A stretch of DNA of 64,000 nucleotides from positions 86,799 through 150,798 of the forward strand of contig MFOC01000007.1 of the NCBI GenBank assembly GCA_001782235.1. The letters run 5' to 3'. Shown one piece after another: positions 22,992 to 42,706 of the stretch. The DNA is from Candidatus Levybacteria bacterium RIFCSPHIGHO2_02_FULL_40_18 (GTDB taxonomy: Bacteria > Patescibacteriota > Microgenomatia > Levybacterales > GWA1-39-11). The notes beneath the pieces are model-generated. The model was not told the origin of the DNA and ran no database searches. It worked only from the letters and a program-made list of their open reading frames with translations. The translations under genes and the position numbers were made by a program. Positions within the stretch are counted from its first letter, which is position 1. Every line of letters begins with the position of its first letter.

Positions 22992-25049
22992 CTATGAAGA
23001 AACTATTTTTATTCCTTGAGAGCTTTCATCTAGGTTGGCTTGCGAAATTTTTTCTTGCTCTTGAACGGGAGACGTGTTAGCAGGGGGGGCTGTCATATCT
23101 TGCGCCTGTGTCTCTGGTTGCTCTCCGGGAGCGGATTGAGCGTCAGCGATGGAGGCATCCTCGCTGACAGGCGTGGGCGACGTAGCGGTGGCTGCCTCTT
23201 CTTCATGGGCAAGAATATCTTGAGGTTTTGAGGTGATCAGATCATATTCATATTGTGACGCTATGAACTGCGCGGTTACATGGTTTTGTCCTGCAAAAAG
23301 AAGTCCTTCCCCAACCTGGGCGGTTACTAAAAATTGTTTCTCTCCTTCTGATAAAAATAACGTTTTTGCCAAAACTTCAACTTCTGACGAGTTCTGTTTC
23401 AAGAGAATTTGGACTGAGGAGTTTGAAAGAATAGACTTTCCATAGTCGCTTGACAGGAAATCTTCAATATCCTGAGTAAGGGTTGTCACGCCAAGAAAAT
23501 ATTTTCTTGCGCGCTTTGCTATCCCTTGCAAAAAGGAGGCAGAATCAGGATGCTTCATAAGATACCATGCCTCATCAACCACCAAAATTCTTTTCTTAAG
23601 TTTTGTTCTGACGCGATTCCAAATAAAATCTAAAACCACGTGCATTGCAATTGGACGCAAAACATCCTCGAGCTGTTTAAGAGAAAAGACGGTTAATTGA
23701 TTTTTTATGTTGTAATTCGTCTGCTGATTAAATAGCCCAGAGAATCCACCTTTTACATATTTTTCAAGACGGAAAGAGAGATCCCTTGCCTCCGGCTCCT
23801 CCATATTAAGTAAGGTTTTATAAAGGTCCTCCAAGATCGGCGGCTCGTTTTTGTAGGTTGCAGGATCCGGCGTTATTCCCTTTTGCTTGTAACAAAGAAC
23901 AATCGCTCTATCTAAAATTGCCTCTTGTGTTGGAGACATCTCCCCAAGCATTGTTTTTAGGAGTCCGTGAAGAGATAATATTTTTATTCCAAGCTGGGCA
24001 TCTGTCATGTCTTCTTGGAGAAGGGCAAACGGGTTAATTTTTACCTCAGAACTTTTTGAGAAGTTTATATATTCGCCATCCAAAGCATGACATAAGGTTT
24101 TGTATTCATCTTCGGGATCTATTATTAAAATCTCGGCGTCAAACATCATTTGCCGCAAAATTTCAAGCTTTACCAAAAAAGATTTTCCGGCGCCCGATTT
24201 TCCAAAGACCACTTCATTTGCATTCTCAAAAGAAAAGCGGTCAACAATCGCAAGCGAATTATTTATGGTATTCACGCCATATAGAATTCCGTTTGGATGG
24301 GAAATTTCATAAGACGTAAATGGAAAAGTTGAAGCCAAAGACGTTGTGTCCATATTGCGGGTTATAAATAGCTTGTCGATTCCTGCTGGAAGACAGGTTT
24401 TGAATCCGTCTTCCATCTGAAGCGTTGCGGGTTTTACAACCAAAAGGTTTGAGGAAAGCAAAGACTGAAGTTCTTTGGTTTTTATATCTAAATTCTCAAC
24501 TGAATCTGCTGCCAGGGTTATATATAGACCAAATTGGAAAAACCGTTCAAGACCTCGCGCTAGCTCTTCTCGGAGCGCTATAGCATCTTCAAGCCCCGCC
24601 TGAATTTTAGGATCCGGCTCAAGCCCCTGTTCCGCATCTGACTGAAGTGTTGCCTCCATCTCGGAGATTTTCCTTCGCAGGTTTCCCAAAACATCCTTGC
24701 TTTCAACCGGATATACAAACATTGATATGTTCATTGTTTCTTTATAGTCAATAAGAATTGAGAGCCAGTTTGGAGAAACCTGACGAGGGTAATCTACAAC
24801 AAAAAACGTTCTGAAAAACTTATCGCCAACTCTTATATTTTTAAAATCTACCTCAACTGAGGAGGGGGATATAAGGTCAACAACAGAAACCGAGCCTGAC
24901 TTGAGAGCATTATATCCTTGCGAGGAGGCGCGTTTTTGAGCAGGCCCCGCACCGTCCCGGTGCGGGGCAGGGACTTTCTGGATCTGAGCGTTAGCGGCGG
25001 TTGGATCCGATATAGCCTGTGTCTGTTGTTTTTTATCTTCATCAAACAT
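22992..25049 (-). CDS. VirB4/TrbE/CagE-family T4SS ATPase, central and C-terminal ATPase portion
   Basis: LISPSSVEVDFKNIRVGDKFFRTFFVVDYP region; Walker A VFGKSGAGKSF; Walker B ILVVDEAWYLM. Confidence 0.85.
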   Translation of the reverse strand: MFDEDKKQQTQAISDPTAANAQIQKVPAPHRDGAGPAQKRASSQGYNALKSGSVSVVDLISPSSVEVDFKNIRVGDKFFRTFFVVDYPRQVSPNWLSILIDYKETMNISMFVYPVESKDVLGNLRRKISEMEATLQSDAEQGLEPDPKIQAGLEDAIALREELARGLERFFQFGLYITLAADSVENLDIKTKELQSLLSSNLLVVKPATLQMEDGFKTCLPAGIDKLFITRNMDTTSLASTFPFTSYEISHPNGILYGVNTINNSLAIVDRFSFENANEVVFGKSGAGKSFLVKLEILRQMMFDAEILIIDPEDEYKTLCHALDGEYINFSKSSEVKINPFALLQEDMTDAQLGIKILSLHGLLKTMLGEMSPTQEAILDRAIVLCYKQKGITPDPATYKNEPPILEDLYKTLLNMEEPEARDLSFRLEKYVKGGFSGLFNQQTNYNIKNQLTVFSLKQLEDVLRPIAMHVVLDFIWNRVRTKLKKRILVVDEAWYLMKHPDSASFLQGIAKRARKYFLGVTTLTQDIEDFLSSDYGKSILSNSSVQILLKQNSSEVEVLAKTLFLSEGEKQFLVTAQVGEGLLFAGQNHVTAQFIASQYEYDLITSKPQDILAHEEEAATATSPTPVSEDASIADAQSAPGEQPETQAQDMTAPPANTSPVQEQEKISQANLDESSQGIKIVSS

Positions 25050-25057
25050 AATTTATT

Positions 25058-25170
25058 TAATTCAAAACTCAAAAGTCAAAAGTTAAAAATTAAAGTTAAA
25101 ATTTAAAAGTGTTTTTAATACTTTTTACTTTTGAATTGCAATTTTGAATTTTGCATTTTGACTTTTAACT
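25058..25170. repeat. AT-rich mirror/inverted word repeat: AAAAGTCAAAAGTTAAAA words, then after about 25112 their complements ACTTTTGA/TTTTGACTTTTAAC
   Basis: Read directly. Potential long imperfect hairpin between the two VirB4 ORFs. Confidence 0.55.
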
Positions 25171-25845
25171 TTACAATATTACATTCTTAATATCATTCGA
25201 ATCAAAATCCAAAGTAATAAACTCCTGATTGAATAGTTCATAGTAAAGCTTTATAAGCTCATTAGTTGAAAGTGGTCGAGCAGAGAGTCCCATTCTCTCA
25301 ACTTGCGTAGTAACATTGTTTCTTTTTGAAATAAGCGCTGATTTTACCCTCTCATTTAATGCCAGGTTTTTTTTGTCCGTTGTTTTCGCTTGTGCAGCAG
25401 AGGCTACCCCAAGCTCCAGTTGAGAAAACGGGATTACAATATAAATCTTTTTGTCTAAAAGTCCCTCACCCTTTATCAGATCTTTTATAAAATCTCTATA
25501 TAATGTTAATTGTTCCTTGACCTTAGGGTTTTGGATTCCTGCTATTTTATCCTCGATTAGTTTTATGTAACTGACAAGATCTACGCGCCGTGAGACAATC
25601 AATATTTGAATAGATGAAGAGAGAGAATTAAGAAGAGACATGTAGCCATAGATTCTTGCGTTTTGTTCATCTTGTGAGAGAAGGAAAAAATTAACGGACG
25701 AAACTTCCATAATCATACAAGCATTGCCGCCTTTTAAGAAGACAATATCGTCCTGGATGTCAACAATCTCAGTAAAATCTTGCGTGCTTGAGTGAATCTT
25801 TGACTTAGCCATAATCGATATAGAAATTGGTTGTAGGATTTCCAT
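25171..25845 (-). CDS. VirB4 N-terminal domain (CagE_TrbE_VirB N-terminal region) encoded as a separate ORF
   Basis: STQDFTEIVDIQDDIVFLKGGNACMIMEVSSVNFFLLSQDEQNARIYGYMSLLNSL...IQILIVSRRVDL resembles the N-terminus of TcpF/PrgJ-type VirB4. Confidence 0.6.
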   Translation of the reverse strand: MEILQPISISIMAKSKIHSSTQDFTEIVDIQDDIVFLKGGNACMIMEVSSVNFFLLSQDEQNARIYGYMSLLNSLSSSIQILIVSRRVDLVSYIKLIEDKIAGIQNPKVKEQLTLYRDFIKDLIKGEGLLDKKIYIVIPFSQLELGVASAAQAKTTDKKNLALNERVKSALISKRNNVTTQVERMGLSARPLSTNELIKLYYELFNQEFITLDFDSNDIKNVIL

Positions 25846-25880
25846 TACTAATTTCCATTTTCCAATAACTATTTTCTAGT

Positions 25881-26954
25881 CTATGCTGTTGCTTGGACTC
25901 CGCCGAATAGTTCGCGTCTTAGTTTCTCACGTGCGTCGATTGACGTAGTTTCTAGTGGATTAAAAATCTCGCCGTTCAAAGTAATTTCCGTTGCTTCAAA
26001 TTCATGATTTTTCTGTGGGTCCTCAAAATAGATTTTATAGGTGCCGTTTTGAAGCTGAGTAGCAGAGGCAAATTGTCCAAGAGCATTTGTTTTAAAGGCC
26101 CTAACCGGAATGCCGTTTGAGTCAATTACCTCAACTAAAATATTAGGCAAGGTTTTACCTCGTGCATCACGGATAATTCCAAGCACTACATTGGGGACAT
26201 CGGGTAGAGTTGGAAAGCCTCCGGTAAGGCTTGGATTTGCACGCACAGGGGTTGGCTGTGGCAGAGTTGTTTCTTTTGGAATTTCATGCCGAGTTTCCTT
26301 CATTGAAAATTCAGCGTCCCCAGCCTCTTTTTTGGGGACAGGCGGGGGGCGTTGAGCTTCCTTTGCGATTTCATCAAGTCTTTTTTTGTTCAGCTCCGAA
26401 GCCGTGTTTTCTTGATTTACCACCATAGGACTTCCTAAAACCGGCGGAGTAGAGACCGCACTTGATCCGTTTGTAAAATAGCTATTGATGGTGTCCAATA
26501 TGCGAGTTTCTGATTGATCCGGACGGAAAGGAGAATTTCTGAGTCTGCTTAATAAAACTGCTCTTTTTTCATCTTGTGGATTCGCAACCTTTGCTATCCC
26601 GCCTTGGCGGGGGGCACCTTGCTTTTTGGGAAGCTCGCCAAACACTTGAAACGTTGCCAGATTTGCACCCCTTTTTCTATATAGATAGCGATTTTCAGAA
26701 GGAATTGCTTTTGCAAAGTTGACGAGCATTACATCCATTGGTCTTCCTTCAATTGGAACAAATGCAAGAGCAACTCCTACAAGCGCAAAAGCCGCCATAG
26801 TTGGAGCTTTAATTAAAATATTGATTGGAAGTACAAAAGCAACAGTTGTTAAAATTCCAAATCCGAGAAGATATAAAAATTGCTTTACAGTAATGCTTCC
26901 AATGAGTTTAAACTTGAAACCCGTAACATCTTGCGGAATAGGGTGATTTTCCAT
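25881..26954 (-). CDS. PrgI/VirB3-like membrane protein with a long C-terminal extension ending in a carboxypeptidase-regulatory-like beta-sandwich
   Basis: N-terminal IPQDVTGFKFKLIGSITVKQFLYLLGFGIL plus a second TM. C-terminal VVLGIIRDARGKTLPNILVEVIDSNGIPVRAFKTNALGQF. Confidence 0.5.
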   Translation of the reverse strand: MENHPIPQDVTGFKFKLIGSITVKQFLYLLGFGILTTVAFVLPINILIKAPTMAAFALVGVALAFVPIEGRPMDVMLVNFAKAIPSENRYLYRKRGANLATFQVFGELPKKQGAPRQGGIAKVANPQDEKRAVLLSRLRNSPFRPDQSETRILDTINSYFTNGSSAVSTPPVLGSPMVVNQENTASELNKKRLDEIAKEAQRPPPVPKKEAGDAEFSMKETRHEIPKETTLPQPTPVRANPSLTGGFPTLPDVPNVVLGIIRDARGKTLPNILVEVIDSNGIPVRAFKTNALGQFASATQLQNGTYKIYFEDPQKNHEFEATEITLNGEIFNPLETTSIDAREKLRRELFGGVQATA

Positions 26955-28539: not shown

Positions 28540-31500
28540 TTCAATTCACATGAATTGGCAGTAGCAGGTCCTGCCACAAGACAACCGCGACAAGGGCGGA
28601 AAGAAGAGCAAGCACCCCCAGGATCGGAAACTGTTTTAAAAGTTCGGAAAAGCGCATTCTTAAGAGAAGAAACATCAGGTACTCGTGTAAGAAGCATTAG
28701 AGGACGAGAACGCGGAATCCAGTCAGAGTGGGTTTCTTTAGATGAACATATAAAAGAAGAGTATCGAATTTTTCTAAAAGACCATGCTGAAGGTTTATTA
28801 AGGCTTTACAACAACCACCAAGAAATCCTCCAAAGCGAACCTCACAGACACGATGAGGAATTATTCAACATGTTTACATCTGAGAGAAGAAACGCAGACG
28901 GTACCATTAAGAAAATAATAGATGAACAAAAAATTGAGGGCTTCTTAAAAAAACCGGAAGGATGGATGGTAACAACGCAATTACTTGAGCATCAAACCGC
29001 AATGCAATTGTTTGCGTTAGGGTTGCACGCAGCTGCTAATCCTCAGGGAGAAAGAAATGCTTTGGGTGGTAAGGTAACTATTCCACTTGGAATAGATCAG
29101 GGTATTTTAAACAGGCTTGGGAGGGAAGTGGTAGAAGGTTTAAGACTTAATGAGTTTGCTGCTACCTTTGGAGGAAGAAGAGGGGAGGCAAGAATTTTGG
29201 GCTTAATTAGGGCTCCCTGGGCAGATAATTTAAGGCGATGGCATGTAGCAGGAATAACGGGCGGTGCATCCGCTTTGGGAATAGCAGGCACCGCAATGCT
29301 TGGACCGGAGGCAATGATTGGAGCAGGTATTGCCCCATGGGCATTTCAATGGCTCCAAGCCTCAATTGGCACTGGTGTTCAGGTTGACATGAGGCAGTGT
29401 AGCGCAGCTTTTCAGGCAATAAGAACGAATCCCACAGAGGTTGAATATGTAAAAGAAGTTTTTGGAGTAGATATGCGAGATTTTGTCGATCTTGGCTATA
29501 ATCAAATCGGCCTAGCACCACATAGAGCGGTGGGAGGCAATCTTGAAACCTATACAGACGTAAACAATCTGAGAAATAATGCCGTAGGAAATATAATTAC
29601 GCGCATGGAATTCTACACCAAAATTGGTGTTCCGCTTGAGAAGCTTGATGCCTTACCCGAGCAATTTCTATATTTATATACTAACCAACAGGAGCAAACC
29701 GGAACCGAATGGCAGAGAAGAATTCAAGAAGTCTTCCTTCCGAATGCCGGAGGCATCAGAGACATAAATGGTAATAACATTGAAACTGCTCCCGGAGTTC
29801 CCAATCCGGCTTTTGACGCCAACAATTTGGATTTTGCCGGAAACATCTCAAGATACATGGATGCAAGAAGACAGATAATGGTAGGAATGGTACGGGATAT
29901 GATTCAAGAAGAAAGAAGTGCGGCGGCTTCTTTAGATCAATCAAAGCAAGCAATTACCCAAATGATAACAGAGAGAAGATCTGAAGGTTATAGACAAAGA
30001 AGAACAGAAAGACTGGGTCAAGAAAGAACAAGACTCGAAGCCTATAGAAATATTTTAGATGGGCAGACAGGTGCATTCACTATATATAACCAAACAATAA
30101 CGGAGCTTAATGAAGAGAGAACAAATCTTGCGACCGAACTTTCAAGGACTTTTGCAGGAGCATTTGGAGGAGATGTTGATGCTGCTTTAACCTCGGCCAG
30201 AAGTATTTTATCGACGCCTGGAACTACCATAACTATTAATGGAAATGTAATTGCTTCTACTCGTCAGAGATTTACAGATCTTGATGCCTGGAGGTCAACA
30301 GAGATAGCCGATATAAAAAATCACAGACCAGCACATTTAGACCCGACAGACGATGAGTATCCAGTATGGGTTCAATCAGAGAGAGAAAGAATACTTAGCG
30401 ATTATCAGAACCAGAAAGCTGATATTCAAGCAGATGTAAATATAATCAACCAGCAGATTGAAAATCTTGAGGGGTTTAGAACTAGAGTTACAGTAGCTGA
30501 AAGGCGGCTTGAGAACAACGAAGAGGGACAGCCATCAAGGATTCTCATTCAACAACTCGAGGGTTGGGAGAGGGATCGCGCTCAAATTACTGGTTGGGGC
30601 ACGCCTGCTAATGTTTTGGATAATGCGTTTTTAGCTAGCGGCGATATAGATGCGATTATGGCAAGAATTAACACTGCTAATGCTGCTACTCCCGCAAACG
30701 GTTGGCCGGAGGCAAGAAATAATGATCCGGCTTATAGAACTCGAGTTTTTCAAGCAGTTCTTGAGTCAAGAGCTCAAGTAGCAGAAGCAGCTGACACAAC
30801 AAGAGCAGCAAGACTTCCTGATTATGTCATTATAACTAACCCTGCAGTATGGAATATTAGTCAGAATGAGTTAAGACACATGACTCCTGCCGATTTAACA
30901 GCCGCACTAACAGCAAGGGCCCCGGCATTAGGGGGAATACCAATTCCAAATCCAGCTCAAATTGAAAACGCTATTCGTGAAGCACAAAATAGAATTCAAG
31001 TTAGATTAGGAGCTATCACAGAGCAAACAAGAATTACTGACGAAGCGATAGAAAACAGAAGGTTCCAAATAGAAGGCGTTAACTTTGATGATGAGATCAG
31101 ACAACTTGAAACAGCATTAACTTTGCTTAATCGACAGCCGGATATTATTGCAGGACGCCCGACTCGTGAGAATCGTGCTACATTTACCGACAGGACTGTT
31201 ATGGCAGGAGATACAACATATTCACAATCTGAAAGAGACGTAGGTTCTGTCAGGGGCTATTATGAATTTATGAATCTCCTCTTTAATTATAGAGAAAGAG
31301 GCGTAGTTGAGGGAGTGGACCGCGACGAATATTTTAGAAGAATTTCTCAAGTTTTACCACCAGCAAGATTAGGGCAATTACTAAATGAAGCTTTGGGATT
31401 GGGAGGTTCCGGAATAAATCTCAATACTGTCTTAGCAAGACTTGATGCAAGACTTGCCTCAGGACAAATAAACGACAGAGATATGGTAAGGGTTTTATTC

Positions 31501-31545
31501 AATGTAATAGAAAGAAATAGACTTGAGGCTCTTGCCCTAAGTTAA
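28531..31545 (+). CDS. Large (about 1000 aa) hypothetical protein, divergent from the T4SS operon. It is R/E/Q-rich and alpha-helical with one hydrophobic hairpin.
   Basis: Long uninterrupted ORF with no recognisable domain. GITGGASALGIAGTAMLGPEAMIGAGIAPWAF is a putative membrane segment. Its GC content appears higher than that of neighbouring genes. Confidence 0.55.
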   Translation: MVQFNSHELAVAGPATRQPRQGRKEEQAPPGSETVLKVRKSAFLREETSGTRVRSIRGRERGIQSEWVSLDEHIKEEYRIFLKDHAEGLLRLYNNHQEILQSEPHRHDEELFNMFTSERRNADGTIKKIIDEQKIEGFLKKPEGWMVTTQLLEHQTAMQLFALGLHAAANPQGERNALGGKVTIPLGIDQGILNRLGREVVEGLRLNEFAATFGGRRGEARILGLIRAPWADNLRRWHVAGITGGASALGIAGTAMLGPEAMIGAGIAPWAFQWLQASIGTGVQVDMRQCSAAFQAIRTNPTEVEYVKEVFGVDMRDFVDLGYNQIGLAPHRAVGGNLETYTDVNNLRNNAVGNIITRMEFYTKIGVPLEKLDALPEQFLYLYTNQQEQTGTEWQRRIQEVFLPNAGGIRDINGNNIETAPGVPNPAFDANNLDFAGNISRYMDARRQIMVGMVRDMIQEERSAAASLDQSKQAITQMITERRSEGYRQRRTERLGQERTRLEAYRNILDGQTGAFTIYNQTITELNEERTNLATELSRTFAGAFGGDVDAALTSARSILSTPGTTITINGNVIASTRQRFTDLDAWRSTEIADIKNHRPAHLDPTDDEYPVWVQSERERILSDYQNQKADIQADVNIINQQIENLEGFRTRVTVAERRLENNEEGQPSRILIQQLEGWERDRAQITGWGTPANVLDNAFLASGDIDAIMARINTANAATPANGWPEARNNDPAYRTRVFQAVLESRAQVAEAADTTRAARLPDYVIITNPAVWNISQNELRHMTPADLTAALTARAPALGGIPIPNPAQIENAIREAQNRIQVRLGAITEQTRITDEAIENRRFQIEGVNFDDEIRQLETALTLLNRQPDIIAGRPTRENRATFTDRTVMAGDTTYSQSERDVGSVRGYYEFMNLLFNYRERGVVEGVDRDEYFRRISQVLPPARLGQLLNEALGLGGSGINLNTVLARLDARLASGQINDRDMVRVLFNVIERNRLEALALS

Positions 31546-31553
31546 AGTATTAT

Positions 31554-31901
31554 ATGAGTCTACAGACTAAAGATTTAATAAAAATATTACCCTTTGACGA
31601 GGCTTTTAAGAAAGAGCTTGGTGATTCCTTCGATAGCTTAGACACTGACAAAAGAAATAGTATTGAAAAGCTGCTTTGGGGAACATATTTTGCTCTTTAT
31701 GACTTTAAATTAAATGAGAACCTTTCAATTGCTCTTGCGGAAGCAAAAAAAAACAGAGAAAAGCTAGATGAGAATTTTTATTGGAGAGTGAAAGAATTGA
31801 CGGATCGGGAGATAGAACATGTAAGCGCTGAAGATATAAAAACAGCCGATTTAGAAGAAGCAAGAGATAAACTCGCAGAAATTGTAAGCCCTGATAAATG
31901 A
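31554..31901 (+). CDS. Hypothetical protein. Its stop directly abuts the stop of the convergent pilin-like gene.
   Basis: ORF only. Confidence 0.4.
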   Translation: MSLQTKDLIKILPFDEAFKKELGDSFDSLDTDKRNSIEKLLWGTYFALYDFKLNENLSIALAEAKKNREKLDENFYWRVKELTDREIEHVSAEDIKTADLEEARDKLAEIVSPDK

Positions 31902-32210
31902 CTATCTTGGGGCGAGCTGCCCTACGCCCGTGATTTGGGATATGGCGTTAAGGAAGAAAAATGAGAGAAAGATAAATATCAGACCAGCAAGCGCATAGAC
32001 TAAAGTTTTCCTAGCGCTTGATATCTTTTCAGGATCCCCTTCTGACATAACATATTTATATCCTGCATAAATTATCATAAAAACCGATACAATACCCGCA
32101 ATTACAATAAGGGCATTGATGATATTTTGAAGAACCACAGGGATACACGAAAGAGTTGCGACGCCCTCAGGGCTAACACAACTTCCCCAATCAGAAATAA
32201 TATCAAACAT
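31902..32210 (-). CDS. T4SS pilin-like protein (VirB2/TrbC-like, two TM helices), paralog 1
   Basis: TM...SEGDPEKISSARK...TM shares the loop motif [ST][SG]GD[KP][EQ]K...AR with three neighbouring genes. Confidence 0.6.
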   Translation of the reverse strand: MFDIISDWGSCVSPEGVATLSCIPVVLQNIINALIVIAGIVSVFMIIYAGYKYVMSEGDPEKISSARKTLVYALAGLIFIFLSFFFLNAISQITGVGQLAPR

Positions 32211-32260
32211 ATATATATTTTATAGATAACCTAATCTTAAAATCAATAAAGAAGGTTTTG

Positions 32261-32659
32261 TTATTTGAATTCAGGGAGGGTGAGGATCTTGAGATTTCTT
32301 AGGTCTCCAAGTCCAAGAGCCTGAAGCACAACATTTATAATGACAAAAGAAAGAGCTATTATAATAAGACCTATTACTGCGGCAATTATATGATTTCTTG
32401 CATCTGCAACTTTTTGTTTGTCTCCGCCTGATGTGATCCACTGAAATGCCCCAATGACTATAAAAAGAAGTGCCGCCAAAAAGGCTATAACTATTATAAA
32501 GGCAACCAAAAACCCTACCACTTGGCCAATGGTTGTTTCAGGAGGAATAACAGTTGCGCCCGCGGGAGTTTTGACTCCGGCATCTATCGCGGCAAAAGCA
32601 GGTGCGGCAAGTGAGGAATAAGAAATTAGAGCGAAGGCACCTGATAATATCTTTCTCAT
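32261..32659 (-). CDS. T4SS pilin-like protein with signal peptide, paralog 2
   Basis: Signal peptide ...LAAPAFAA, then TM-SGGDKQKVADAR-TM. Confidence 0.65.
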   Translation of the reverse strand: MRKILSGAFALISYSSLAAPAFAAIDAGVKTPAGATVIPPETTIGQVVGFLVAFIIVIAFLAALLFIVIGAFQWITSGGDKQKVADARNHIIAAVIGLIIIALSFVIINVVLQALGLGDLRNLKILTLPEFK

Positions 32660-32698
32660 AAATTAATTAGAGCATGTTTCAAACCCTTTGTCAATAGT

Positions 32699-33034
32699 CT
32701 ATGGATTAACAACTGTTTTAACACCAAACGCGCCTGCTACGAGATTTACAAAGACAAGCGCCAATGACATAACTATTAATCCAAATATCGCATAGATAAC
32801 TATTCTTCTTGCTTTATCCCATTTTTGCTTGTCCCCGGACGCTTGTAGCCAATAAAAACCCCCATAAACAATATAGAATAGAGAAAGAAAAATTCCAATA
32901 ATTAGCGCTAGTTGAATGAAAAAAGATGCAATATTGCCTATTGTAAATTGAGGTCCGGTAGGAATACCGGGAGGCGCCTCAATATCAACTTGGCCTCCGC
33001 CTGAACCCGGTACTTTTAATGATAAATATCTCAT
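32699..33034 (-). CDS. T4SS pilin-like protein, paralog 3
   Basis: TM-ASGDKQKWDKAR-TM. Confidence 0.65.
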   Translation of the reverse strand: MRYLSLKVPGSGGGQVDIEAPPGIPTGPQFTIGNIASFFIQLALIIGIFLSLFYIVYGGFYWLQASGDKQKWDKARRIVIYAIFGLIVMSLALVFVNLVAGAFGVKTVVNP

Positions 33035-33171
33035 ATTAGAAATTGGTTATTAATAATTAGAAAATAGTTCAGAAATTAGAAATTAGAAATTGGTTCTTGA
33101 TTTTTAACTATTTTCTATTCTCTATTTTCCATTACCATTTTCCATTCTCCTATAACTATTTTCTAATATAT
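33035..33171 (-). repeat. Word-repeat palindromic leader element, copy B, 5' of the pilin paralog-3 gene
   Basis: ATTAGAAATTGGTTATTAATAATTAGAAAATAGTT... then CTATTTTCTATTCTCTATTTTCCATTACCATTTTCC. It contains a 29-bp segment (33084-33112) that is a perfect inverted copy of 34648-34676. Confidence 0.6.
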
Positions 33172-34569
33172 TTAGCGGGTGATTCCTGGTATTTTCAAAA
33201 TATCAACTCCTATTATCTCAAGTATAACAATTGAGAAAATGATGAACAACAATCCTACGACTGCAGAAGTTATCGTTTCCCTTGCTCCTGCGATTTTCTC
33301 TTTATCCCCTCCTGACGTTATTAATATATAGCCTGAGTAGATTATTATTATGATTGCCCCAAATCCCGCAATTGTTAATATAAATCTAAAAATTGTCTCA
33401 ATGAATCCTTTTGGAGTGACATTAATTGGTCCGATTGCCGAATTTATGGTTTTACAGTCACCAGGGCGAAGATTAATATCACCTTCCCCACTTCCACAAG
33501 GCAGTATTGCACCGGGAGCAACCTTATTTAACGCCGCAAGGTCTTTAAGAAAGGTACGATACTCCTCGCCTTTGGGATCTTGTCTATAATGCAGGGGATC
33601 ATCACATGTTCCACCTTCCTTATTATTAGCTGATGTGATTATGCATGTTGCTTCATAATATGTAAATCCACCTTTACAACCAGGTGGGTTTGGAACTGAA
33701 GGAAATACGCTGACGCTTACCCAAGCCCATGCGGTTGGGTTATCATCATCAACCTGTTCTCTTACAGTTATTGTGTATTTTCCAGCGGAAAGTTTTTGAA
33801 ACTCAATTCTTTTTCCACTCTCATTCTCGCTCGTAAAGGCAAGACATCCTCCCTGTCGGTAACCATTGTTTCCAATCATCAAAATTTGGTAGTTATTCCT
33901 TCTCCACCCTCCAGGCCTGAACGAATTATTAATGGCATTGCCTAGATTTACGGTGATTGTTGCGCCAGGTCTCAAGTCTGTACCAGGATAGATTGATAGA
34001 GAAGGATAAGTTCTATGAACATAAAAACCTCCTATTTTAATTGGTTTGTAATAGGCATCTTTTATTAGGGTTCCGATACTCAGCGCATAGACATTCCCAC
34101 CATGAAAATAGACAGTGCCACCACAGTCAGTTTTGACCTTGCTACTTCCTGCTCCGCATACCCCCTTAACAGTTACATTGCCTTTGCTATCTGATTTTAG
34201 CCCTAAGATAAAATTGTCCAATATATCTGGGCCGTTTATCCCAGGTACAAATCCTTCTTCTCTAAGACATGCGCTGTCTCCCGTACAAATTATATAACCA
34301 GACTTATCACTCTCAAGTCCATAAAAAGTAATATCAATTATTTTATCTGCTTCATCAAGACATTCAGGTCGCTCGCTTGTTGAAAATTCAACGTCTGTTC
34401 CCTCAAGAATTGTCTCAGTGGGAGAAGGACTTGTCTGACATGGATCAAGCTGGGCAAAAGCAGGAGTTTTGAAAAGTAAAAATATCGCGGCGAAGAGGAA
34501 GGACGCGGTTAATATAAGAAGCTTCTTCATATATTTATGATAGGCAGAAGGAGTAGGGGAAGTCAACAT
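33172..34569 (-). CDS. Large pilin-domain protein: signal peptide, Cys-rich extracellular domain (about 380 aa), C-terminal pilin-like two-TM module
   Basis: C-terminus ...IIIIIYSGYILITSGGDKEKIAGARETITSAVVGLLFIIF matches the paralog motif. At least 14 Cys in the ectodomain. Confidence 0.6.
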   Translation of the reverse strand: MLTSPTPSAYHKYMKKLLILTASFLFAAIFLLFKTPAFAQLDPCQTSPSPTETILEGTDVEFSTSERPECLDEADKIIDITFYGLESDKSGYIICTGDSACLREEGFVPGINGPDILDNFILGLKSDSKGNVTVKGVCGAGSSKVKTDCGGTVYFHGGNVYALSIGTLIKDAYYKPIKIGGFYVHRTYPSLSIYPGTDLRPGATITVNLGNAINNSFRPGGWRRNNYQILMIGNNGYRQGGCLAFTSENESGKRIEFQKLSAGKYTITVREQVDDDNPTAWAWVSVSVFPSVPNPPGCKGGFTYYEATCIITSANNKEGGTCDDPLHYRQDPKGEEYRTFLKDLAALNKVAPGAILPCGSGEGDINLRPGDCKTINSAIGPINVTPKGFIETIFRFILTIAGFGAIIIIIYSGYILITSGGDKEKIAGARETITSAVVGLLFIIFSIVILEIIGVDILKIPGITR

Positions 34570-34723
34570 CCGCTAGAAATTAGTTATTAATAATTAGAAA
34601 ATAGTTGTTGGAAAATGGAAATTAGTAATGGAAAATAGAGAATAGAAAATAGTTAAAAATCAAGAACCAATTTCTAGTTTCTAATTTCCGAACCATTCTC
34701 TAATTTCCCATAACTACTTTCTG
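34570..34723 (-). repeat. Word-repeat palindromic leader element, copy C, 5' of the large pilin-domain gene
   Basis: GCTAGAAATTAGTTATTAATAATTAGAAAATAGTT... (30-mer near-identical to the start of copy B), then GGAAAATGG/GAAAATAG words, then CTAATTTC words. Confidence 0.6.
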
Positions 34724-36040
34724 CTACTCTGTGAGTTTGTAGCCGCGGCCTTTTATGGTTTGGATAGAATTAGGATTATTGGGATCATCTTCTATTTTCT
34801 TTCGTAAGCGATAAATTATTTGATCAAGGGCTTGGTCTGTTACACCTTCTTGAGTTTTAGTGTCTTTCCAGACATTTGAGATTATTTCGTCTTTTTCACA
34901 TACCCGCCCTTGGTTTTGAAGCAAAAATCTAAGTAGTCTAAACTCCTGCGGAGAAAGAATTTCGGTTAAGTTTTGATCTCCCTTGAGGATCTCATTGCGC
35001 TCCTGATCATAAGACAATCTTGGGGAGGTGGGGGTTAAAGTTTTTAGGTATGTGTCGAACAATGGAATAACGAGTTTGCCATCACGGGTTAGTCCTGCCT
35101 TTTCTAAAAATTCATTTTTATTATTTGCTTTTATATCCTTCTTTTCTTCCGGTGTCAGGAAATTCCATATCTCTGAAAGCGCGCTCCTAACCTGTGGTTT
35201 TAACAGTAAGACTTCGGATAATCGGCTGTTGGCTGTTGGCTGTTGGCTATTGGCCAGGGTAGCTTCATAACAAATTCGTGCGAGTTTTCCGTGGCCGCCG
35301 GTCAGTTTTATAATTTCACTTTTAATTCTTTCATCAGCCGACTTTCCCGAAATTTCTTCAAGATGCTTGAATCGAAATTCTAGTCCCACCTTATCATAAA
35401 GCGAAAGATATACTATGTTACCGATTAAAAACTCAGAGAATTCGGCATAAATAGAAGATTCTAAAACCTCCTCGATTGGACGCGTTATGCCAAAAACAGC
35501 AGTAAATCTATACTTTGCGCGGTTTCGAAGAATCTTTAAGTTAAGAAAAAAGGAAGAGTCAATATTTTGTACATATTCCTCAAAACGGTCCAGCAGAAAA
35601 ACAATATTTAATTCGCATTCATTTGCAAGATAGTCTATAGCTTTTTTTAAGTTTTGAGAAAAGACCATCTCATCGGAGAATTTAAGAGCGTCTGAGAGAA
35701 ATTTATTAACAACCGACTCTTCTTCTTTTAATCTTCTTTCGCCAAAAGAGGAAGCAATAGAGATTAAGATAAATTTTAATATGTCGGAAAGGGACCTTTT
35801 GGCTACTTCTGAGAAGTCCATATAAACAAAATGATAAGAAGATTCCCTTTTACCTAAGTGGAGCTCCCGGACCGTTCTATTATAAGGAAGTAAACGAAGC
35901 GCGTTGCTTTTCCCTGTGCCCGGTAGCCCAATTACCTGACAGGATTTGCCCGATGATACGAATTCGATAATTTTGGCGATCTCAGCCTTTCTTGTTTCTT
36001 TTGGGTATAGGCTCTCAAAATGAGAAGGCTCGATAATCAT
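34724..36040 (-). CDS. AAA+ ATPase fused to a C-terminal OmpR/PhoB-type winged-helix DNA-binding domain. Putative regulator of the locus.
   Basis: Walker A VIGLPGTGKSNAL, Walker B IVFLLDRFEE. C-terminal LSPQEFRLLRFLLQNQGRVCEKDEIISNVW...ALDQIIYRLRKKIEDDP...IQTIKGRGYKL (trans_reg_C). Confidence 0.7.
   Translation of the reverse strand: MIIEPSHFESLYPKETRKAEIAKIIEFVSSGKSCQVIGLPGTGKSNALRLLPYNRTVRELHLGKRESSYHFVYMDFSEVAKRSLSDILKFILISIASSFGERRLKEEESVVNKFLSDALKFSDEMVFSQNLKKAIDYLANECELNIVFLLDRFEEYVQNIDSSFFLNLKILRNRAKYRFTAVFGITRPIEEVLESSIYAEFSEFLIGNIVYLSLYDKVGLEFRFKHLEEISGKSADERIKSEIIKLTGGHGKLARICYEATLANSQQPTANSRLSEVLLLKPQVRSALSEIWNFLTPEEKKDIKANNKNEFLEKAGLTRDGKLVIPLFDTYLKTLTPTSPRLSYDQERNEILKGDQNLTEILSPQEFRLLRFLLQNQGRVCEKDEIISNVWKDTKTQEGVTDQALDQIIYRLRKKIEDDPNNPNSIQTIKGRGYKLTE
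35224..35251. repeat. Heptanucleotide tandem repeat (GGCTGTT)x3 plus GGCTATT inside the AAA+-wHTH coding sequence
   Basis: Read directly: GGCTGTTGGCTGTTGGCTGTTGGCTATT. Encodes ANSQQPTANS on the minus strand. Confidence 0.8.
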
Positions 36041-36103
36041 AGAAAATAGAAAATAGTTATTAGAAAATAGACAATGGTTCGGAAATTAGAAAATAGAAAT
36101 TGG
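36041..36103 (-). repeat. Word-repeat leader element, copy D, 5' of the AAA+-wHTH gene
   Basis: AGAAAATAGAAAATAGTTATTAGAAAATAGACAATGGTTCGGAAATTAGAAAATAGAAATTGG. Confidence 0.55.
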
Positions 36104-36532
36104 TTAACGATCATGGTAATTCTTCCAAGATTTCTTAAGATTCGTTAGTTGCTTACAGGAGATTATATATAAATTTATGACTTCGTTGCAAAGTTTAGGA
36201 TCGACGTATTTACTATAAACATCTATGCATACTGATAAATGATTTATCATTTCGTAACATTCACCTATCGTATCATCTATATATTTACTCCATGCTTTTT
36301 TCTGATATCTTTTGGCAAACCCCTCAGCAAGTATGGCTGGTCCTGCTTTGCAACTACGTCTCATTTGATCAACAAGATCAAACTTCTCTTCCTTCGGTAG
36401 ATTAGTAATTATTTCCTTCAATACTGTGACCATTGCCTTATATAAATTTTGGTACACCTCAAGATCTTGAAAAGTTCTGATTGGCTTTTTCTTTCTATTT
36501 TCCATTTTCAAATATCTATTACCATTTTCCAC
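36104..36532 (-). CDS. Four-helix-bundle protein (23S rRNA intervening-sequence protein family). The probable true start is near 36505, because the first codons are built from leader-repeat words.
   Basis: FQDLEVYQNLYKAMVTVLKEIITNLPKEEKFDLVDQMRRSCKAGPAILAEGFAKRYQKKAWSKYIDDTIGECYEM matches the family pattern. Confidence 0.65.
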   Translation of the reverse strand: MENGNRYLKMENRKKKPIRTFQDLEVYQNLYKAMVTVLKEIITNLPKEEKFDLVDQMRRSCKAGPAILAEGFAKRYQKKAWSKYIDDTIGECYEMINHLSVCIDVYSKYVDPKLCNEVINLYIISCKQLTNLKKSWKNYHDR

Positions 36533-36560
36533 TTTCCTACAACCATTTACAATTATCAGA
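36488..36560 (-). repeat. Word-repeat leader element, copy E (CTATTTTCCATTTTC... on the plus strand), overlapping the annotated 5' end of the four-helix-bundle gene
   Basis: TTCTATTTTCCATTTTCAAATATCTATTACCATTTTCCACTTTCC. Confidence 0.5.
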
Positions 36561-36627
36561 CTTCTGTTACGCTGCTGTTAGGTTAATATCAAGTATCCTA
36601 AGCTATATTCTTGTAAACTTGCGCCAT

Positions 36628-39600
36628 ATGACACACGAAAATTTGACACCAAGAGACGCTATCAACTATTCTATAAATAGAATGCCAGAACCCATAATAG
36701 ATGGCCTACGAGGCGGCTCTGCCTCAAGTCGTTCAGTTCCGGGATATGATTCTTCCAGAACCGTAGATGAAATACAGGCTCAAAGAATTGTTGATGAGGT
36801 CAAATCCAAATCTTATTCTGCTAAAAGCAAATGGAGCAAAGAACAGGTTGATAAAAATGCCGGGCTTTCTGATGAGGAACGTCTTAGTCAAGCAGCTAAA
36901 ATTTTAAATCGGGAGCTTTCTCAAGAACAAAAAGACGCAGTCATTGGAACACATAAAATTAGCGAAGGCGAGATGGGAAAAGATGATAAACCTGTCAAAA
37001 TAGGAGAATACACACAGGCTCAAATTAAAAGAAAAGCCAATTCATTGAAAAAAGCAGGGTTTAATCTTGAAGAAAGGCGTGCTTTGCTTGAAAGCGGCAT
37101 TGCCGGCCTTCCTCTGGAAAGATTCGCCGCTATTAATCCTGACACATATACAGATCCTGAGATTAAAAATAAAACGGGGTTTGTAAAAACTATGGGGACA
37201 GAAGGAAACGCTGATTCGGAATTCTTACAGAATCAACTCTTTGAACTCAACTCTAGAATCGATAGGGGAACTGGGGACCTCAGAGAAGCAAGAACATTTC
37301 GGGATCAAATACAAGATCTTTTGACAGAGGCTCGTAGGCAAGAAACTGCAGAATTAGAAGAGAGAAGGCGTGCCGCGGAGGCAAGGTCTCCTACAGAGAG
37401 AAGGGGAGGCTATGAGCATCTTGAACGAACAGAGGAACAATTAAGAGCTATGACTCCTGAGGAACGTCAGAATTGGAGGGATCAAATTAAGCAGGCAATC
37501 AGAGAAGCGCCAGCCATCGATGCCTCTCGCTTCCCTGAACAACTTTTAGTAATAGCATTGAGCGATAAGGAACTTCGTGAGATGCTTCTCAATAGAATTC
37601 TTTTTAAACCCTATGAAGATACAACTGAGGCAAATATGTATAGGCTTAACTTTTACGCTGAGGGGAATCGCGACGATATTCTTGGGAAATTAGCCGAAAT
37701 AACTGATGGGAAATATGATTATTTTAAAAAACTTCAGACCGCGGTAGAGTTATTTCATGCAATGAATGTATCAACTGTCTCAGGAGACATAGAGCATTTA
37801 CTTGACTATGCTCGGCGAATAAATTTTGAACATTTTTCCTTAATGCAAGAGCTTCCAGGTCTCCCAGATGTCATGAGGCTTTATGAAGAGAAATACCAGG
37901 AGATTTTAGCAAGAGAAGGTAGAATAGCAACAGAGGGTTACAAAACATTAAAAAAAGAAGTAGAGAGAGCCTTCAATGAGATGAATGAAAAAGGGATTGT
38001 CAGAAGCGAATATGAAACGGAAAGGACTGGTGACAGGCCATGGATAATGGAAGACTGGGAAAGAACTAGGGCTATTAATGCGGGAAGAGCATTTTTTAAT
38101 ATTACCATTCGCGCAGCAGAACATATAGCAAATGGACAACTTGAGTCTGGAGGTAGAAAATGGACAGGATTTCCTCAGGAAGACGCTGTAAGACTTATGA
38201 ACTGGCCAAAATGGCTCGTTGAGAGATTTGAGGTTGCTATCCCTCGTGGAGGGCGTGCGTTTCTTGACAGAACAAGTAGAAACTACTTTGAATTTCTTGT
38301 TGAGCGCAAGCGAAAACTGGGGATAAATAGAATAGCCCAGCTTGGAGGAATGAGGGTTGATGAGCTTGAACTTGGGGCAATGTTTGGCGTAAGCGGAGTT
38401 TATAGCTCCTGGAGACTTGAGGCAATGCTATTTCCAAAGATCAAACTTGCCAATGGCCAGACACTTAGAGACTGGCTTGATGAGGAAGTCGGATATATAT
38501 CGCCGGACGGCAAGACAATTATGGCAAGAGGGAAAGACAGGCAGAGTCACTGGGTTGATAAAGGTATCTCCTTGCAGAAGCGGGCTGACTGGTTAGACCA
38601 GATTCAAGGAGATATTAAAAGCCAAGACCAGTTGCTCAAGTTTTTATCTCCTGTCATAGAAAATACAGACATTGCACTTGGTGTATTACTTAAGCAAGGT
38701 CTTACCTCAGGAGAGGTAGGATATAAGGTGAGAGAGAGAATTTGGCAAAGAGTTGCTGAAACAAATCTGCCTCTGATGATAAATTATCTTTCAAGCATTA
38801 GTGAAATGGATGATCCAATAGAGGTTGGTATAGGAGAACCTTTAAAAGGCGCACCAAAAGCTCAAAATCGCATAAGGCCAGATGACTGGACGTGCGGCGA
38901 AGAAGGGAGCGAGGAACGAAAGGAGGGAGATAGGAAGTGGAATGAGTTTAAAGAAAATGTTTTACTGCATCATGCCTGGGAAGTTAAACGCGCGGCGGGA
39001 GCAAATGTGTCAGAGGAGTCGCCTGTCCGTGATTATATTCGTGATCACCAAGATTTGATAGATAAAATTAAGCAAGAGGGGAGAGCACTTGCACCGCAAC
39101 TTGCAGATATTGTTTTTCCTTACGTTCCTTTTATGAATGACGTGCCATTTGAACTTATCGATTATGCAGGCCCGGGAGAAACATTCTACAAGAGGAGATT
39201 AGGCTCTGACCTTCCGAGCTTTAGCGCTGCAGAGCGCGCGTTTACAACCATTGTTAATAATCCGGGTGGGATAGGAGCAGAGAATGCACTTAAGGCATTT
39301 GATGAGATTGTAAAAGGAATTGAGAGTCCACAAGGGACACCGGATGCGCAGGAAAGGGTCTATCCAATGCTTTCTGCCTGGGGAGAATTTGTCCTGGCGC
39401 GTCCCGGGCATAGACAGATGATAATAAAGGCAGTTACAGAGATACTAAGAAAACCCACTTCCATTGCTCAGGAGTTTGCAGGAATGGATGCGGAATCTCT
39501 CGATGAAAATCAAATGCTGGCTGTTTTAGGAAATGCTACGAAAGCTGGAATTATAAGCCATGACCTTTACAATGAGATGAAGAAAAAAAAGCATCTGGGC

Positions 39601-39702
39601 ATTCTTTTTATCTTGTGGGCGCTTTTCCGTGATATTATTATAATGGCTCCGGCAATCGCAGCTTGGGAGATGGGTAAAGATACGATGAAGAAAGCGGCAT
39701 GA
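36628..39702 (+). CDS. Large (about 1020 aa) hypothetical protein with a C-terminal TM anchor, on the opposite strand inside the T4SS-like locus. Start chosen at ATG 36628.
   Basis: Long ORF; C-terminal HLGILFILWALFRDIIIMAPAIAAW hydrophobic helix. R/E-rich with no recognised domain. Confidence 0.55.
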   Translation: MTHENLTPRDAINYSINRMPEPIIDGLRGGSASSRSVPGYDSSRTVDEIQAQRIVDEVKSKSYSAKSKWSKEQVDKNAGLSDEERLSQAAKILNRELSQEQKDAVIGTHKISEGEMGKDDKPVKIGEYTQAQIKRKANSLKKAGFNLEERRALLESGIAGLPLERFAAINPDTYTDPEIKNKTGFVKTMGTEGNADSEFLQNQLFELNSRIDRGTGDLREARTFRDQIQDLLTEARRQETAELEERRRAAEARSPTERRGGYEHLERTEEQLRAMTPEERQNWRDQIKQAIREAPAIDASRFPEQLLVIALSDKELREMLLNRILFKPYEDTTEANMYRLNFYAEGNRDDILGKLAEITDGKYDYFKKLQTAVELFHAMNVSTVSGDIEHLLDYARRINFEHFSLMQELPGLPDVMRLYEEKYQEILAREGRIATEGYKTLKKEVERAFNEMNEKGIVRSEYETERTGDRPWIMEDWERTRAINAGRAFFNITIRAAEHIANGQLESGGRKWTGFPQEDAVRLMNWPKWLVERFEVAIPRGGRAFLDRTSRNYFEFLVERKRKLGINRIAQLGGMRVDELELGAMFGVSGVYSSWRLEAMLFPKIKLANGQTLRDWLDEEVGYISPDGKTIMARGKDRQSHWVDKGISLQKRADWLDQIQGDIKSQDQLLKFLSPVIENTDIALGVLLKQGLTSGEVGYKVRERIWQRVAETNLPLMINYLSSISEMDDPIEVGIGEPLKGAPKAQNRIRPDDWTCGEEGSEERKEGDRKWNEFKENVLLHHAWEVKRAAGANVSEESPVRDYIRDHQDLIDKIKQEGRALAPQLADIVFPYVPFMNDVPFELIDYAGPGETFYKRRLGSDLPSFSAAERAFTTIVNNPGGIGAENALKAFDEIVKGIESPQGTPDAQERVYPMLSAWGEFVLARPGHRQMIIKAVTEILRKPTSIAQEFAGMDAESLDENQMLAVLGNATKAGIISHDLYNEMKKKKHLGILFILWALFRDIIIMAPAIAAWEMGKDTMKKAA

Positions 39703-39721
39703 AGCTTTTCTTGCTGTTCTT

Positions 39722-41335: not shown

Positions 41336-41344
41336 AATTGATTT

Positions 41345-41480
41345 TAGTATTTAGAAATTGGTTTTTGGACAATAGAAATTAGTAATAGAAAATAGAGAAT
41401 AGAAAATAGAAACAAATACTATTCTCCAAGTTCAAATTTCCATAACCATTTTCCAATTTCTTACAACTATTTTCTAATAA
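41345..41480 (-). repeat. Word-repeat palindromic leader element, copy F, 5' of the VirB6-like gene
   Basis: TAGAAATTGGTTTTTGGACAATAGAAATTAGTAATAGAAAATAGAGAATAGAAAATAG ... CCATAACCATTTTCCAATTTCTTACAACTATTTTCTAAT. Confidence 0.6.
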
Positions 41481-41719
41481 GTCTATTTTTAGTATGGGCT
41501 AAAAATATCGTAAATGTCAAATAGTTGGCTTGACCCCGCTAATCTTACCGTTCGCCTTTTTCCCGCCGATATTTTTCGGTCGGGATCCCGCACGAATGTA
41601 ATTCGTCGGGACAGTACTATTCGTACACGGCTCACGGAGCGATTTTAGAGGTGTCTTCTGTCGCTACGCTTCTTGACAATTGGTGTGGTTGGGGTTATTA
41701 TTATCAAAATCTTCATTAA

Positions 41720-42537: not shown

Positions 42538-42564
42538 TGCACCTTGAACAACCAGCCCAATTAA

Positions 42565-42690: not shown

Positions 42691-42706
42691 AATTTAGAAT
42701 TTAATT

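Follow-up and report, generated by a model that had tools for sequence, protein, structure and literature searches.

A heptanucleotide array in the hinge loop of a predicted regulator at the head of a Levybacteria type IV secretion pilin operon is probably a slow coding microsatellite and not a fast contingency switch

Regulators of the MalT/LAL family consist of an AAA_16 nucleoside triphosphatase (NTPase) of the STAND type (signal transduction ATPase with numerous domains), helical domains and a C-terminal DNA-binding effector, and the pho box has a layout of 7 conserved and 4 variable base pairs. Type IV secretion system (T4SS) genes and their pilin arrays are widespread in Patescibacteria and have been reported essential for the epibiotic growth of cultivated Saccharibacteria. 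A survey of the T4SS of Patescibacteria described the VirB2 arrays of Microgenomatia and their nearness to dnaA, and named no regulator (PMC12102498). Among heptamer switches, that of neuO has 3-53 units, 20 being the commonest number, and is OFF in 65.6% of genomes (PMC13001214), while the permissive cut-off of the program PhasomeIt lies at three or more copies for units of 6-9 nt (PMC5953494). Heptanucleotides are in excess in many prokaryotes, which has been put down to polymerase slippage, and are the commonest class of long simple-sequence repeats in prokaryotes; the TAACTGA repeats of Beggiatoaceae belong to this literature (PMC4679880). Here we analyzed a 64,000-nt stretch of Candidatus Levybacteria bacterium RIFCSPHIGHO2_02_FULL_40_18 (hereafter the window, whose own numbering is used), in which the gene for a predicted winged-helix regulator, called REG below, carries a heptanucleotide array in its coding sequence.

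The array, which lies in a tolerant hinge loop of an operon-leading regulator, is probably a slow coding microsatellite generated by slippage and not a fast contingency switch. In this organism it is fixed at 4 units, in frame, and does not behave as a high-frequency ON/OFF switch. A reading of the window from its sequence alone had proposed the opposite, namely that gain or loss of a unit switches the gene, and with it the whole pilus/secretion locus, ON and OFF. The two features in question are:

34724..36040, minus strand: REG gene, 438 aa (open reading frame (ORF), Pfam, AlphaFold2 model, Foldseek; more than 1000 full-length Patescibacteria homologues)
35224..35254, minus strand: heptanucleotide array, (AACAGCC)x4.4 on the coding strand, loop residues 263-273 (Tandem Repeats Finder (TRF), shuffles, model)

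The tandem repeat that the sequence-only reading had placed at 35224-35251 was recovered there by TRF (period 7, 4.4 copies, 95% matches, score 55, unit GGCTGTT). On the forward strand it consists of three perfect GGCTGTT units followed by GGCTATT and then GGC; on the coding strand AATAGCC(AACAGCC)x3 gives LANSQQPTANSRL (NSQQPTANSR), residues 263-273. Near-perfect tandem runs of period 4-15 occur only twice in the 64 kb, the other being a 14-bp array at 11125-11159, and 30 Markov shuffles contained no comparable run, which puts the repeat far beyond chance. In an AlphaFold2 model of REG built on 30 orthologues (mean predicted local distance difference test (pLDDT) 89.5, predicted template modeling score 0.77), the array residues form the loop that joins the lid helix (251-263) to helix 274-280. 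This loop is one of two marked confidence dips in the structured part (block mean pLDDT 71) and the most indel-rich, hypervariable column block of the family alignment A1. When slippage was simulated, a change of one or two units in either direction produced stops at residues 278-287 with loss of the winged helix, so that a one-unit gain or loss does frameshift the gene as had been claimed; three units more or less left it in frame. In purely mechanical terms, a switch of this kind would be workable.

Alleles were compared in consensus assemblies, so minority alleles lie outside the reach of these data. In the assembly collection, 59 index blocks contain exactly this 438-aa protein, and the 24 contigs read all encode it without change; at least 25 independent assemblies of the organism have the same 4-unit allele. 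Three copies of the locus (L001-L003, from NCBI and ENA) are identical across 7.3 kb but for one single-nucleotide polymorphism outside the array. Neither the predicted products of REG with -3, -2, -1, +1, +2 or +3 units nor four slipped alleles of the orthologue P0003 were present among ~15 billion proteins, and no truncated REG protein of >78% identity was among the top matches. A frameshift at the linker was not found in ~50 orthologous DNA loci, a sample whose array-bearing part is small and biased to ON; 37 of the orthologous loci had been found by peptide patterns irrespective of reading frame. We considered L038, the only frameshifted one of these 37, as an OFF allele and rejected it, as its break is near residue 130 and off the linker. 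P0207 and P0208, two proteins that end at the linker, were likewise set aside as uninformative (~25% identity, stop-codon context absent). A search of JGI metagenome contigs with both flanks and a variable gap of 12-42 nt had no match, not even to the reference allele, and is uninformative since the organism is absent from that collection. A second metagenome scan, with a protein query, returned 6 loci only, among them L059 with a new array.

With 4 units in every assembly read, slipped products absent and no OFF allele at the site, the proposed phase-variation switch is not borne out, and phase-variable expression of the whole pilus/secretion locus finds no support in the population and comparative data. 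The sequence-only reading had named two observations that would tell against its switch. An identical repeat number was indeed seen in all strains sampled; absence of the repeat from orthologues was not, as ~30% of the family carry heptamer arrays there. As things stand, the switch hypothesis should not be carried into annotation. Length heterogeneity at read level, if found, would point to a stochastic switch of the host-contact apparatus in bacteria of the Candidate Phyla Radiation (CPR).

Arrays of quite different units stand at the same loop across the REG family. The orthologue P0003 (locus L052; 75% identity to REG of the window) has AACGACG x4.4, and the others are AGCAACT x4 (L063/P0066 and L067/P0279), CAAATCT x5 (L064/P0073), GAAATTY x5 (L059) and AGCRTCT x3-4 (L062/P0020 and L033), with decayed period-7 stretches in L051, L053, L065 and L066. 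About 30% of the family has a heptamer-derived linker at this loop, almost always with a copy number of ~4 (the unit being AGCCAAC in the window), and the arrays of the orthologues begin at the conserved L-A codons with which the lid helix closes. When 50 REG genes were scanned at lag 7 for windows with at least 17 of 21 matches, 7 cases were found at two positions only, namely the linker and another variable loop, near residue 305, while each other lag from 4 to 15 gave at most one case, the harmonic 14 excepted. The second loop follows EIWNxLTPEE; it has heptamer arrays in some orthologues and none in REG of the window:

L052 5317-5347, L063 2287-2324 and L033 6900-6930: arrays near residue 305 (AAGAATT x4, GAATTAG x3 and A-rich AAAACnn x4)

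The same period is seen in the protein sequences. Runs of at least two identities at a lag of 7 aa were present in the linker of 53 of 185 homologues versus 5-19 for other lags, and runs of at least three in 30 of 185 versus no more than 2. By linker length, the signal was found in 36 of the 59 homologues of the 42-44 aa class versus 4 of the 86 with 39-40 aa; rarer classes have 37, 46, 50 and 53-58 aa. The pattern AT[SG]xxxLAT (consensus LATSNWQLAT[SR]), present in 14 listed sequence clusters, equals four translated AGCAACT-type units. P0073 and P0091 (86% identity) have an identical linker, and P0066 and P0279 (64% identity) both have (AGCAACT)x4, the same down to third codon positions. We do not claim an enrichment of coding heptamer arrays in REG over other genes, because the array-bearing loci were selected for their arrays and none of the unselected loci L004-L040 passes the strict threshold. 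Judged from these comparisons, the array is old, homogeneous and stable at ~4 units, which argues against hypermutability. There are hints that occasional slippage or conversion homogenizes the units within a lineage.

Heptamers are also the prevailing tandem repeats of the surrounding DNA. Array counts in 450 kb of orthologous loci were 27 for period 7 and 15 for period 14, versus 1 for period 6 and 7 for period 8. With stricter criteria, 521 kb contained 37 arrays of period 7 versus at most 5 of any other period, apart from 14 of the harmonic period 14. Of these 37 arrays, 24 fall outside long ORFs, where 13% of the sequence is found. The 14-bp array of the window is in the gene of the housekeeping resolvase RuvC (10730-11215, minus strand) and is built of two heptamers, (AACAGCC AAAAGCT)x2.5, which encode DNSQKLTAKS. 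It is 85% identical at the DNA level to the REG array (NSQQPTANS) and in the same frame, both being built of the same AACAGCC heptamer.

We believe that replication slippage would generate the array from the last codons of the lid helix (...L-A-x), and that it would persist because a surface hinge loop tolerates almost any sequence. A lineage-wide bias toward heptamer slippage would act throughout these genomes, with coding products surviving only in tolerant loops and at in-frame lengths; about four units would recur at this loop in about a third of the family because only frame-keeping arrays survive inside genes. The array would then show a lineage-wide slippage bias shaping a protein hinge.

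Several points weigh against a slow microsatellite in a tolerant loop. Four homogeneous coding units can be reached only via frameshifted intermediates or rare 21-bp steps, which sits awkwardly with neutrality. Sister lineages, such as the window and P0003 at 75% identity, have homogeneous arrays of different units, and the identity of third codon positions in the two (AGCAACT)x4 arrays at 64% protein identity suggests ongoing homogenization or selection. Minority alleles are possible behind consensus assemblies, and the searches for orthologues were mostly protein-based and hence biased to intact (ON) genes. Both the DNA target of REG and its ATPase activity are themselves predictions.

The first alternative is a contingency locus, in which slipped-strand mispairing leaves REG ON at 4 units (or 1, 7 or 10) and truncated at other numbers, the pilin and T4SS genes switching stochastically. 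The unit is not a multiple of 3, with the stops at 278-287 described above; REG heads a surface-structure operon; homogeneous arrays of lineage-specific units occupy the same site; and linker classes of ~37, 43-44, 50 and 57-58 aa within one clade suggest steps of three units. The three perfect units also reach the cut-off of PhasomeIt of at least 3 copies (PMC5953494), but are far below the usual number in neuO, which ranges over 3-53 and is mostly 20 (PMC13001214). The 24 contigs and L001-L003 show no polymorphism, the six slipped products are unrecorded, and no linker frameshift was present in the 37 loci found regardless of frame, the break of L038 being near residue 130. The copy number stays at ~4 throughout species that are 14-36% diverged. 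We consider a contingency locus unlikely.

A second alternative keeps the gene ON and uses in-frame steps of 21 bp (7 aa) to adjust the hinge between lid and helical domain, altering the activity of the NTPase switch. Changes of three units are in frame, the model places the loop where two domains meet, linker lengths group at 37, 42-44, 50 and 53-58 aa, and in neuO the repeat length is reported to affect catalytic activity (PMC13001214). However, the length classes are not cleanly quantized, and alleles with three units more or less are unrecorded both for this organism and for P0003. Such hinge-length tuning appears decidedly improbable. An intermediate picture is quite unlikely as well, namely that of a slow contingency or tuning locus, in which a microsatellite has long been kept at one hinge loop, its unit sequence turning over while the copy number returns in frame (1, 4, 7, 10). 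If it were true, occasional slippage would silence or re-tune REG and the pilus of an episymbiotic CPR bacterium, and the CPR would have its first described mechanism akin to phase variation. Taken together, a biologically meaningful switch or tuning of the hinge ranges in our estimate from quite unlikely to not very likely.

The protein that contains the microsatellite was compared by profile, fold and alignment, and its recognizable parts are:

35906..35929, minus strand: Walker A GLPGTGKS, residues 38-45 (alignment A1, AlphaFold2 model)
35579..35602, minus strand: Walker B VFLLDRFE, residues 147-154 (in A1, D151 and F153 invariant; model strand 145-151)
35276..35299, minus strand: lid motif GGHGKLAR, residues 248-255 (G249 invariant; H250, G251, K252 and L253 at least 90% conserved)
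34727..35017, minus strand: OmpR/PhoB-type winged helix, residues ~342-438 (Pfam, NCBIfam, PDB profile matches)

REG belongs to a Candidatus Levybacteria genome (CPR/Patescibacteria), and its encoded protein is 100% identical to OGH15949.1, from a metagenome-assembled genome, and to others. Pfam finds Trans_reg_C (PF00486) at residues 362-436 with E 9.5e-23. P-loop matches to NPHP3_N, AAA_22 and AAA_16 at residues 17-158 are weak and under the curated cut-offs; a weak AAA_16 match, again under the cut-off (best E 2.6e-4), is present in 22 of 30 orthologues, and nSTAND1 or nSTAND3 in a few of the 30. Residues 342-436 align in NCBIfam to the DNA-binding halves of RpaB, PhoB, CadC and others, and PDB profile matches for the C-terminus are RegX3, PhoB, CovR and WalR, while a PDB sequence search with the N-terminal part had no match. 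Foldseek against the PDB aligned the first ~335 residues with ORC4, archaeal Cdc6/Orc1, the Pyrococcus Walker ATPase 2qen and CED-4 (best matches at E 5e-7 to 1e-4; TM 0.45/0.53 for 2qen; identity 12-17%) and the C-terminus with the DNA-binding domains of RstA, YycF, CovR and PhoB. The likeness to Cdc6/ORC is at the level of the fold only, as Pfam Cdc6/ORC had no match in REG or 30 orthologues. Pfam detected no receiver domain (Response_reg) and no LuxR helix-turn-helix (HTH) in REG, and no BTAD, NB-ARC or TPR in 30 family members.

In the Walker A motif, P40, G41 and G43 are invariant in A1 and G38, K44 and S45 are at least 90% conserved; in the model strand 34-37 precedes it and helix 44-53 follows. 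The family forms, invariant or nearly so in A1, are GLPGxGKS for Walker A, hhhhDRFE for Walker B and GGHGKLxR for the lid. The lid motif GGHGKLAR, directly upstream of the array, would occupy a sensor-2-like position, a label we use because of the ORC/Cdc6 fold match. Columns D402-R413 of the winged helix are invariant, and DQALDQIIYRLRKKIE, invariant or nearly so in A1, is the presumed recognition helix. Together, the Trans_reg_C match, the weak P-loop matches, the fold and the Walker motifs confirm the N-terminal P-loop ATPase and C-terminal OmpR-type winged helix that had been read from the sequence. The order is also, as had been noted, the reverse of that in SARP/AfsR regulators, the winged helix being C-terminal and BTAD, NB-ARC and TPR not detected. 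We infer that REG is a STAND/ORC-like P-loop NTPase (core, lid and small helical domain) joined to an OmpR/PhoB winged helix, a nucleotide-switch transcription factor whose ATP dependence is predicted. Its N-terminal module falls into 610 clusters at 50% identity, and most of the 150 best-scoring are 430-470 aa long; therefore the architecture is fixed. All of the more than 1000 homologues are from Patescibacteria, and their names go no further than 'winged helix-turn-helix domain-containing protein'. The architecture and the operon-leading role of REG appear to be undescribed so far. PADLOC had no match for REG or its large neighbors, and a role in a defense system was rejected on that ground.

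The T4SS setting of REG was examined by tblastn of the window proteins against ~40 orthologous loci, in which REG identity was 47-78%. The genes concerned in the window are:

31902..34569, minus strand: 465-aa pilin-domain protein and three VirB2-like T4SS pilins (PF18895; order kept in ~35 loci)
22992..26954, minus strand: PrgI-like, 224-aa (p224) and VirB4-like ATPase genes of the T4SS cluster (Pfam)

Four PF18895 (T4SS_pilin) genes, PrgI and a VirB4-like gene were identified by Pfam, which confirms the T4SS setting assumed in the sequence-only reading. The 465-aa pilin-domain protein and three PF18895 pilins lie downstream of REG and are co-directional with it; a variable insert follows, and then PrgI, p224 and VirB4. 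The order REG, large pilin protein, three or four pilins, PrgI, p224, VirB4 was seen in ~35 Levybacteria loci, essentially every locus long enough, with PrgI, p224 and VirB4 directly after the pilins in L010, L013 and L036. Among the orthologous loci, the gap from REG to the pilin is often only 20-90 bp. The upstream neighbors are also kept: a divergent 1000-aa protein, a 537-aa protein, DUF5667 and NrdR. By this conserved gene order, REG leads the Levybacteria T4SS pilin operon, and is at its 5' edge rather than in the middle of a T4SS-like locus as had been described.

The sequence between the divergent protein and REG contains the following site:

36558..36593, minus strand: conserved promoter/operator CTTGATATTAACCTAACAGCAGCGTAACAGAAGTCT (position weight matrix (PWM) score 39.2, unique in the window)

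Its -35 element TTGATA is separated by a 17-nt spacer from a -10-like TAACAG, and two TAACAG-type 7-bp direct repeats, 11 bp apart, overlap the spacer and the -10 region of the REG promoter. Across the loci the 36-nt consensus is CTTGATAT-nnn-CCTnACAA-nAnn-CTnACAAT, with TTGAYA as -35. In 40 of 46 loci the single best PWM match to the motif lies 40-600 nt upstream of REG and on the strand of that gene; weaker copies lie ~170 nt upstream of PrgI in three loci (L021, L023 and L037). The most likely target of REG would be the two direct repeats, phased by 11 bp, that overlap with its promoter, and by binding there it would control its own gene and the pilin genes that follow. The winged helix is unlikely to bind the GAAAATAG repeats, a test of which had been suggested; these repeats are a poor target because their units differ between species and the recognition helix does not, and the conserved direct-repeat site is the better candidate. 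The role of REG as candidate regulator of the pilus/T4SS locus, on the other hand, is strengthened by synteny in ~35 loci and by the conserved promoter/operator. REG is therefore put forward as a conserved, operon-leading regulator candidate of unusual architecture (STAND/ORC-like NTPase plus OmpR winged helix) for the T4SS of Patescibacteria, and the candidate operator is a concrete target that can be tested without culturing the organism.

The operator also bears on a third alternative, in which the array acts in cis as a DNA or RNA element, for example as a set of internal decoy sites for the winged helix. CAACAGC in the array equals the operator half-site TAACAGC at 6 of 7 positions, and synonymous positions of the array are conserved between P0066 and P0279. 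However, an invariant recognition helix stands against units that are wholly different by lineage (AACGACG, CAAATCT, GAAATTY), a 7-bp spacing is at odds with the 10-11-bp phasing of OmpR-family sites, the operator-only PWM gives the array no score, and Rfam has no match, all of which leave this alternative a very slim chance. A chance resemblance or an assembly artefact is a negligible prospect in view of the shuffles, the same sequence in independent NCBI, ENA and Logan assemblies, and the homologous arrays at the same loop in other species.

The operator-only part of the REG promoter PWM (GGTAACAAAAAGGCAACAAA) gave a score of 22 to an 11-bp tandem repeat, AAAAAGGCAAC x2.5, at 57159-57195. 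This repeat adjoins tRNA-Ser, ~280 nt upstream of an ORF at 57474, and could be either fortuitous or another binding site.

Other heptamer-built features surround the REG gene:

34573..34722, no strand: intergenic palindromic element of ~130-150 nt with GAAAATA-type heptamers, between REG and the first pilin gene (TRF)
36104..36505, minus strand: 23S-rRNA-IVP/Avd-like four-helix-bundle gene (PF05635, E 3e-15), between the promoter and REG

The element at 34573-34722 has a 130-nt, 88% match to another at 33038-33167 and would fold as an RNA hairpin of -39 kcal/mol (z -5.75). Both belong to a palindromic family (with members also at 41340-41480, 42560-42700 and 25062-25166) in which a left array of GAAAATA/AGAAATT-type heptamers is followed by an inverted right array. 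As RNA the members form long hairpins of -34 to -39 kcal/mol (z -5.6 to -7.7). They stand between pilin operon genes and on either side of nrdR, and may have a processing, stabilizing or attenuating role. Rfam had no match in 31000-43000 at E up to 0.1. An invertible segment was considered from the 58-nt, 90% inverted repeats that bracket REG (34665-34722 and 36048-36105) and rejected, as these are generic right and left arms of the element family, in which any arm pairs with any other.

The IVP gene is flanked by the two arms of a heptamer-built palindrome, the left one at 36039-36105 and the right one at 36492-36545, as if in the loop of a hairpin. IVP genes are also found in L051, L063 (twice), L064, L067 and L009 and are absent from most orthologous loci; because similar genes are scattered in this way, the gene and its arms suggest a mobile hairpin-plus-ORF unit. 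A link to diversity-generating retroelements via the Avd-like IVP gene was dropped, there being no reverse transcriptase among the ORFs scanned, which were part of all ORFs. Toxin-antitoxin-like or abortive-infection genes stand beside REG in L067 (2911-3794, DUF6922-AbiEii) and L065 (764-1381, Gp49-HTH); the REG-pilin junction tolerates insertions. On the other side of the promoter, the 1073-aa ORF at 36481-39702 (plus strand) most likely starts at ATG 36628 (MTHENLTPRD...), giving 1024 aa as in other assemblies. This gene is divergent from the REG promoter region and is beside REG in many loci, and neither Pfam nor PADLOC had a match for it.

Farther away, an 805-aa protein encoded at 54372-56789 (minus strand), ~20 kb from the other T4SS genes, has weak matches to TraG-D_C, TrwB and DUF87 and could be a VirD4-like coupling ATPase. 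The dnaA (17554-18966) and dnaN (19152-20249) genes are 3-15 kb from the T4SS cluster, in line with what has been reported for Patescibacteria. Their spacer contains a 23-bp repeat with the DnaA-box-like TTATCAACA (18968-19011), a heptamer array, CTAGTGA x4.7, lies at 17513-17545 immediately upstream of dnaA, and the cumulative GC skew has its minimum near 16-18 kb of the window.

Compared with the known systems, REG shares with MalT/LAL regulators an N-terminal AAA_16-like NTPase (by weak matches), helical domains and a C-terminal DNA-binding domain; given this layout, it is predicted to be a nucleotide-dependent transcription activator. It differs in that the effector is an OmpR/PhoB winged helix and not a LuxR/GerE HTH, in its smaller size (438 aa) and in the absence of TPR/SUPR sensor repeats. 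By analogy, the nearest functional analogue of REG is a MalT/LAL-type STAND regulator with another effector domain. AfsR/SARP regulators also unite an OmpR-type winged helix with a STAND-type NTPase, but begin with the winged helix and BTAD, followed by NB-ARC and TPR, whereas in REG the order is reversed. The C-terminus of REG is a bona fide Trans_reg_C as in OmpR/PhoB regulators, and the two 7-bp repeats at an 11-bp phase in the candidate operator recall the pho box. In contrast to those regulators, REG is without a receiver domain, so that control would be by nucleotide binding and not by phosphorylation, and in contrast to the pho box its repeats overlap the spacer and -10 and do not replace the -35. 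For the first ~335 residues, the folds of Orc1/Cdc6, ORC4 and 2qen match best; however, the identity is 12-17%, Pfam Cdc6/ORC is absent and the C-terminal DNA-binding domain is of another type.

For the array itself, the closest system is neuO of E. coli K1 (CUS-3 prophage), which likewise has a coding heptanucleotide, (AAGACTC)n, with every third copy number in frame and an in-frame length that may affect activity (PMC13001214). The neuO repeat, however, is at the 5' end, polymorphic between and within strains and OFF in about two thirds (PMC13001214), while the REG array has ~4 units mid-gene, with no polymorphism and no OFF allele seen in assemblies. As in Beggiatoaceae and other prokaryotes, heptamer repeats are over-represented, mostly intergenic, just upstream of starts and few in ORFs (PMC4679880); the Levybacteria units differ in being lineage-specific, AT-rich and arranged as inverted arrays, which fold into long hairpins. 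That work makes no mention of an array that recurs, as in REG, at a single coding position within one gene family (PMC4679880). The REG microsatellite, though unusual, can be explained as a variant of a phenomenon already known.

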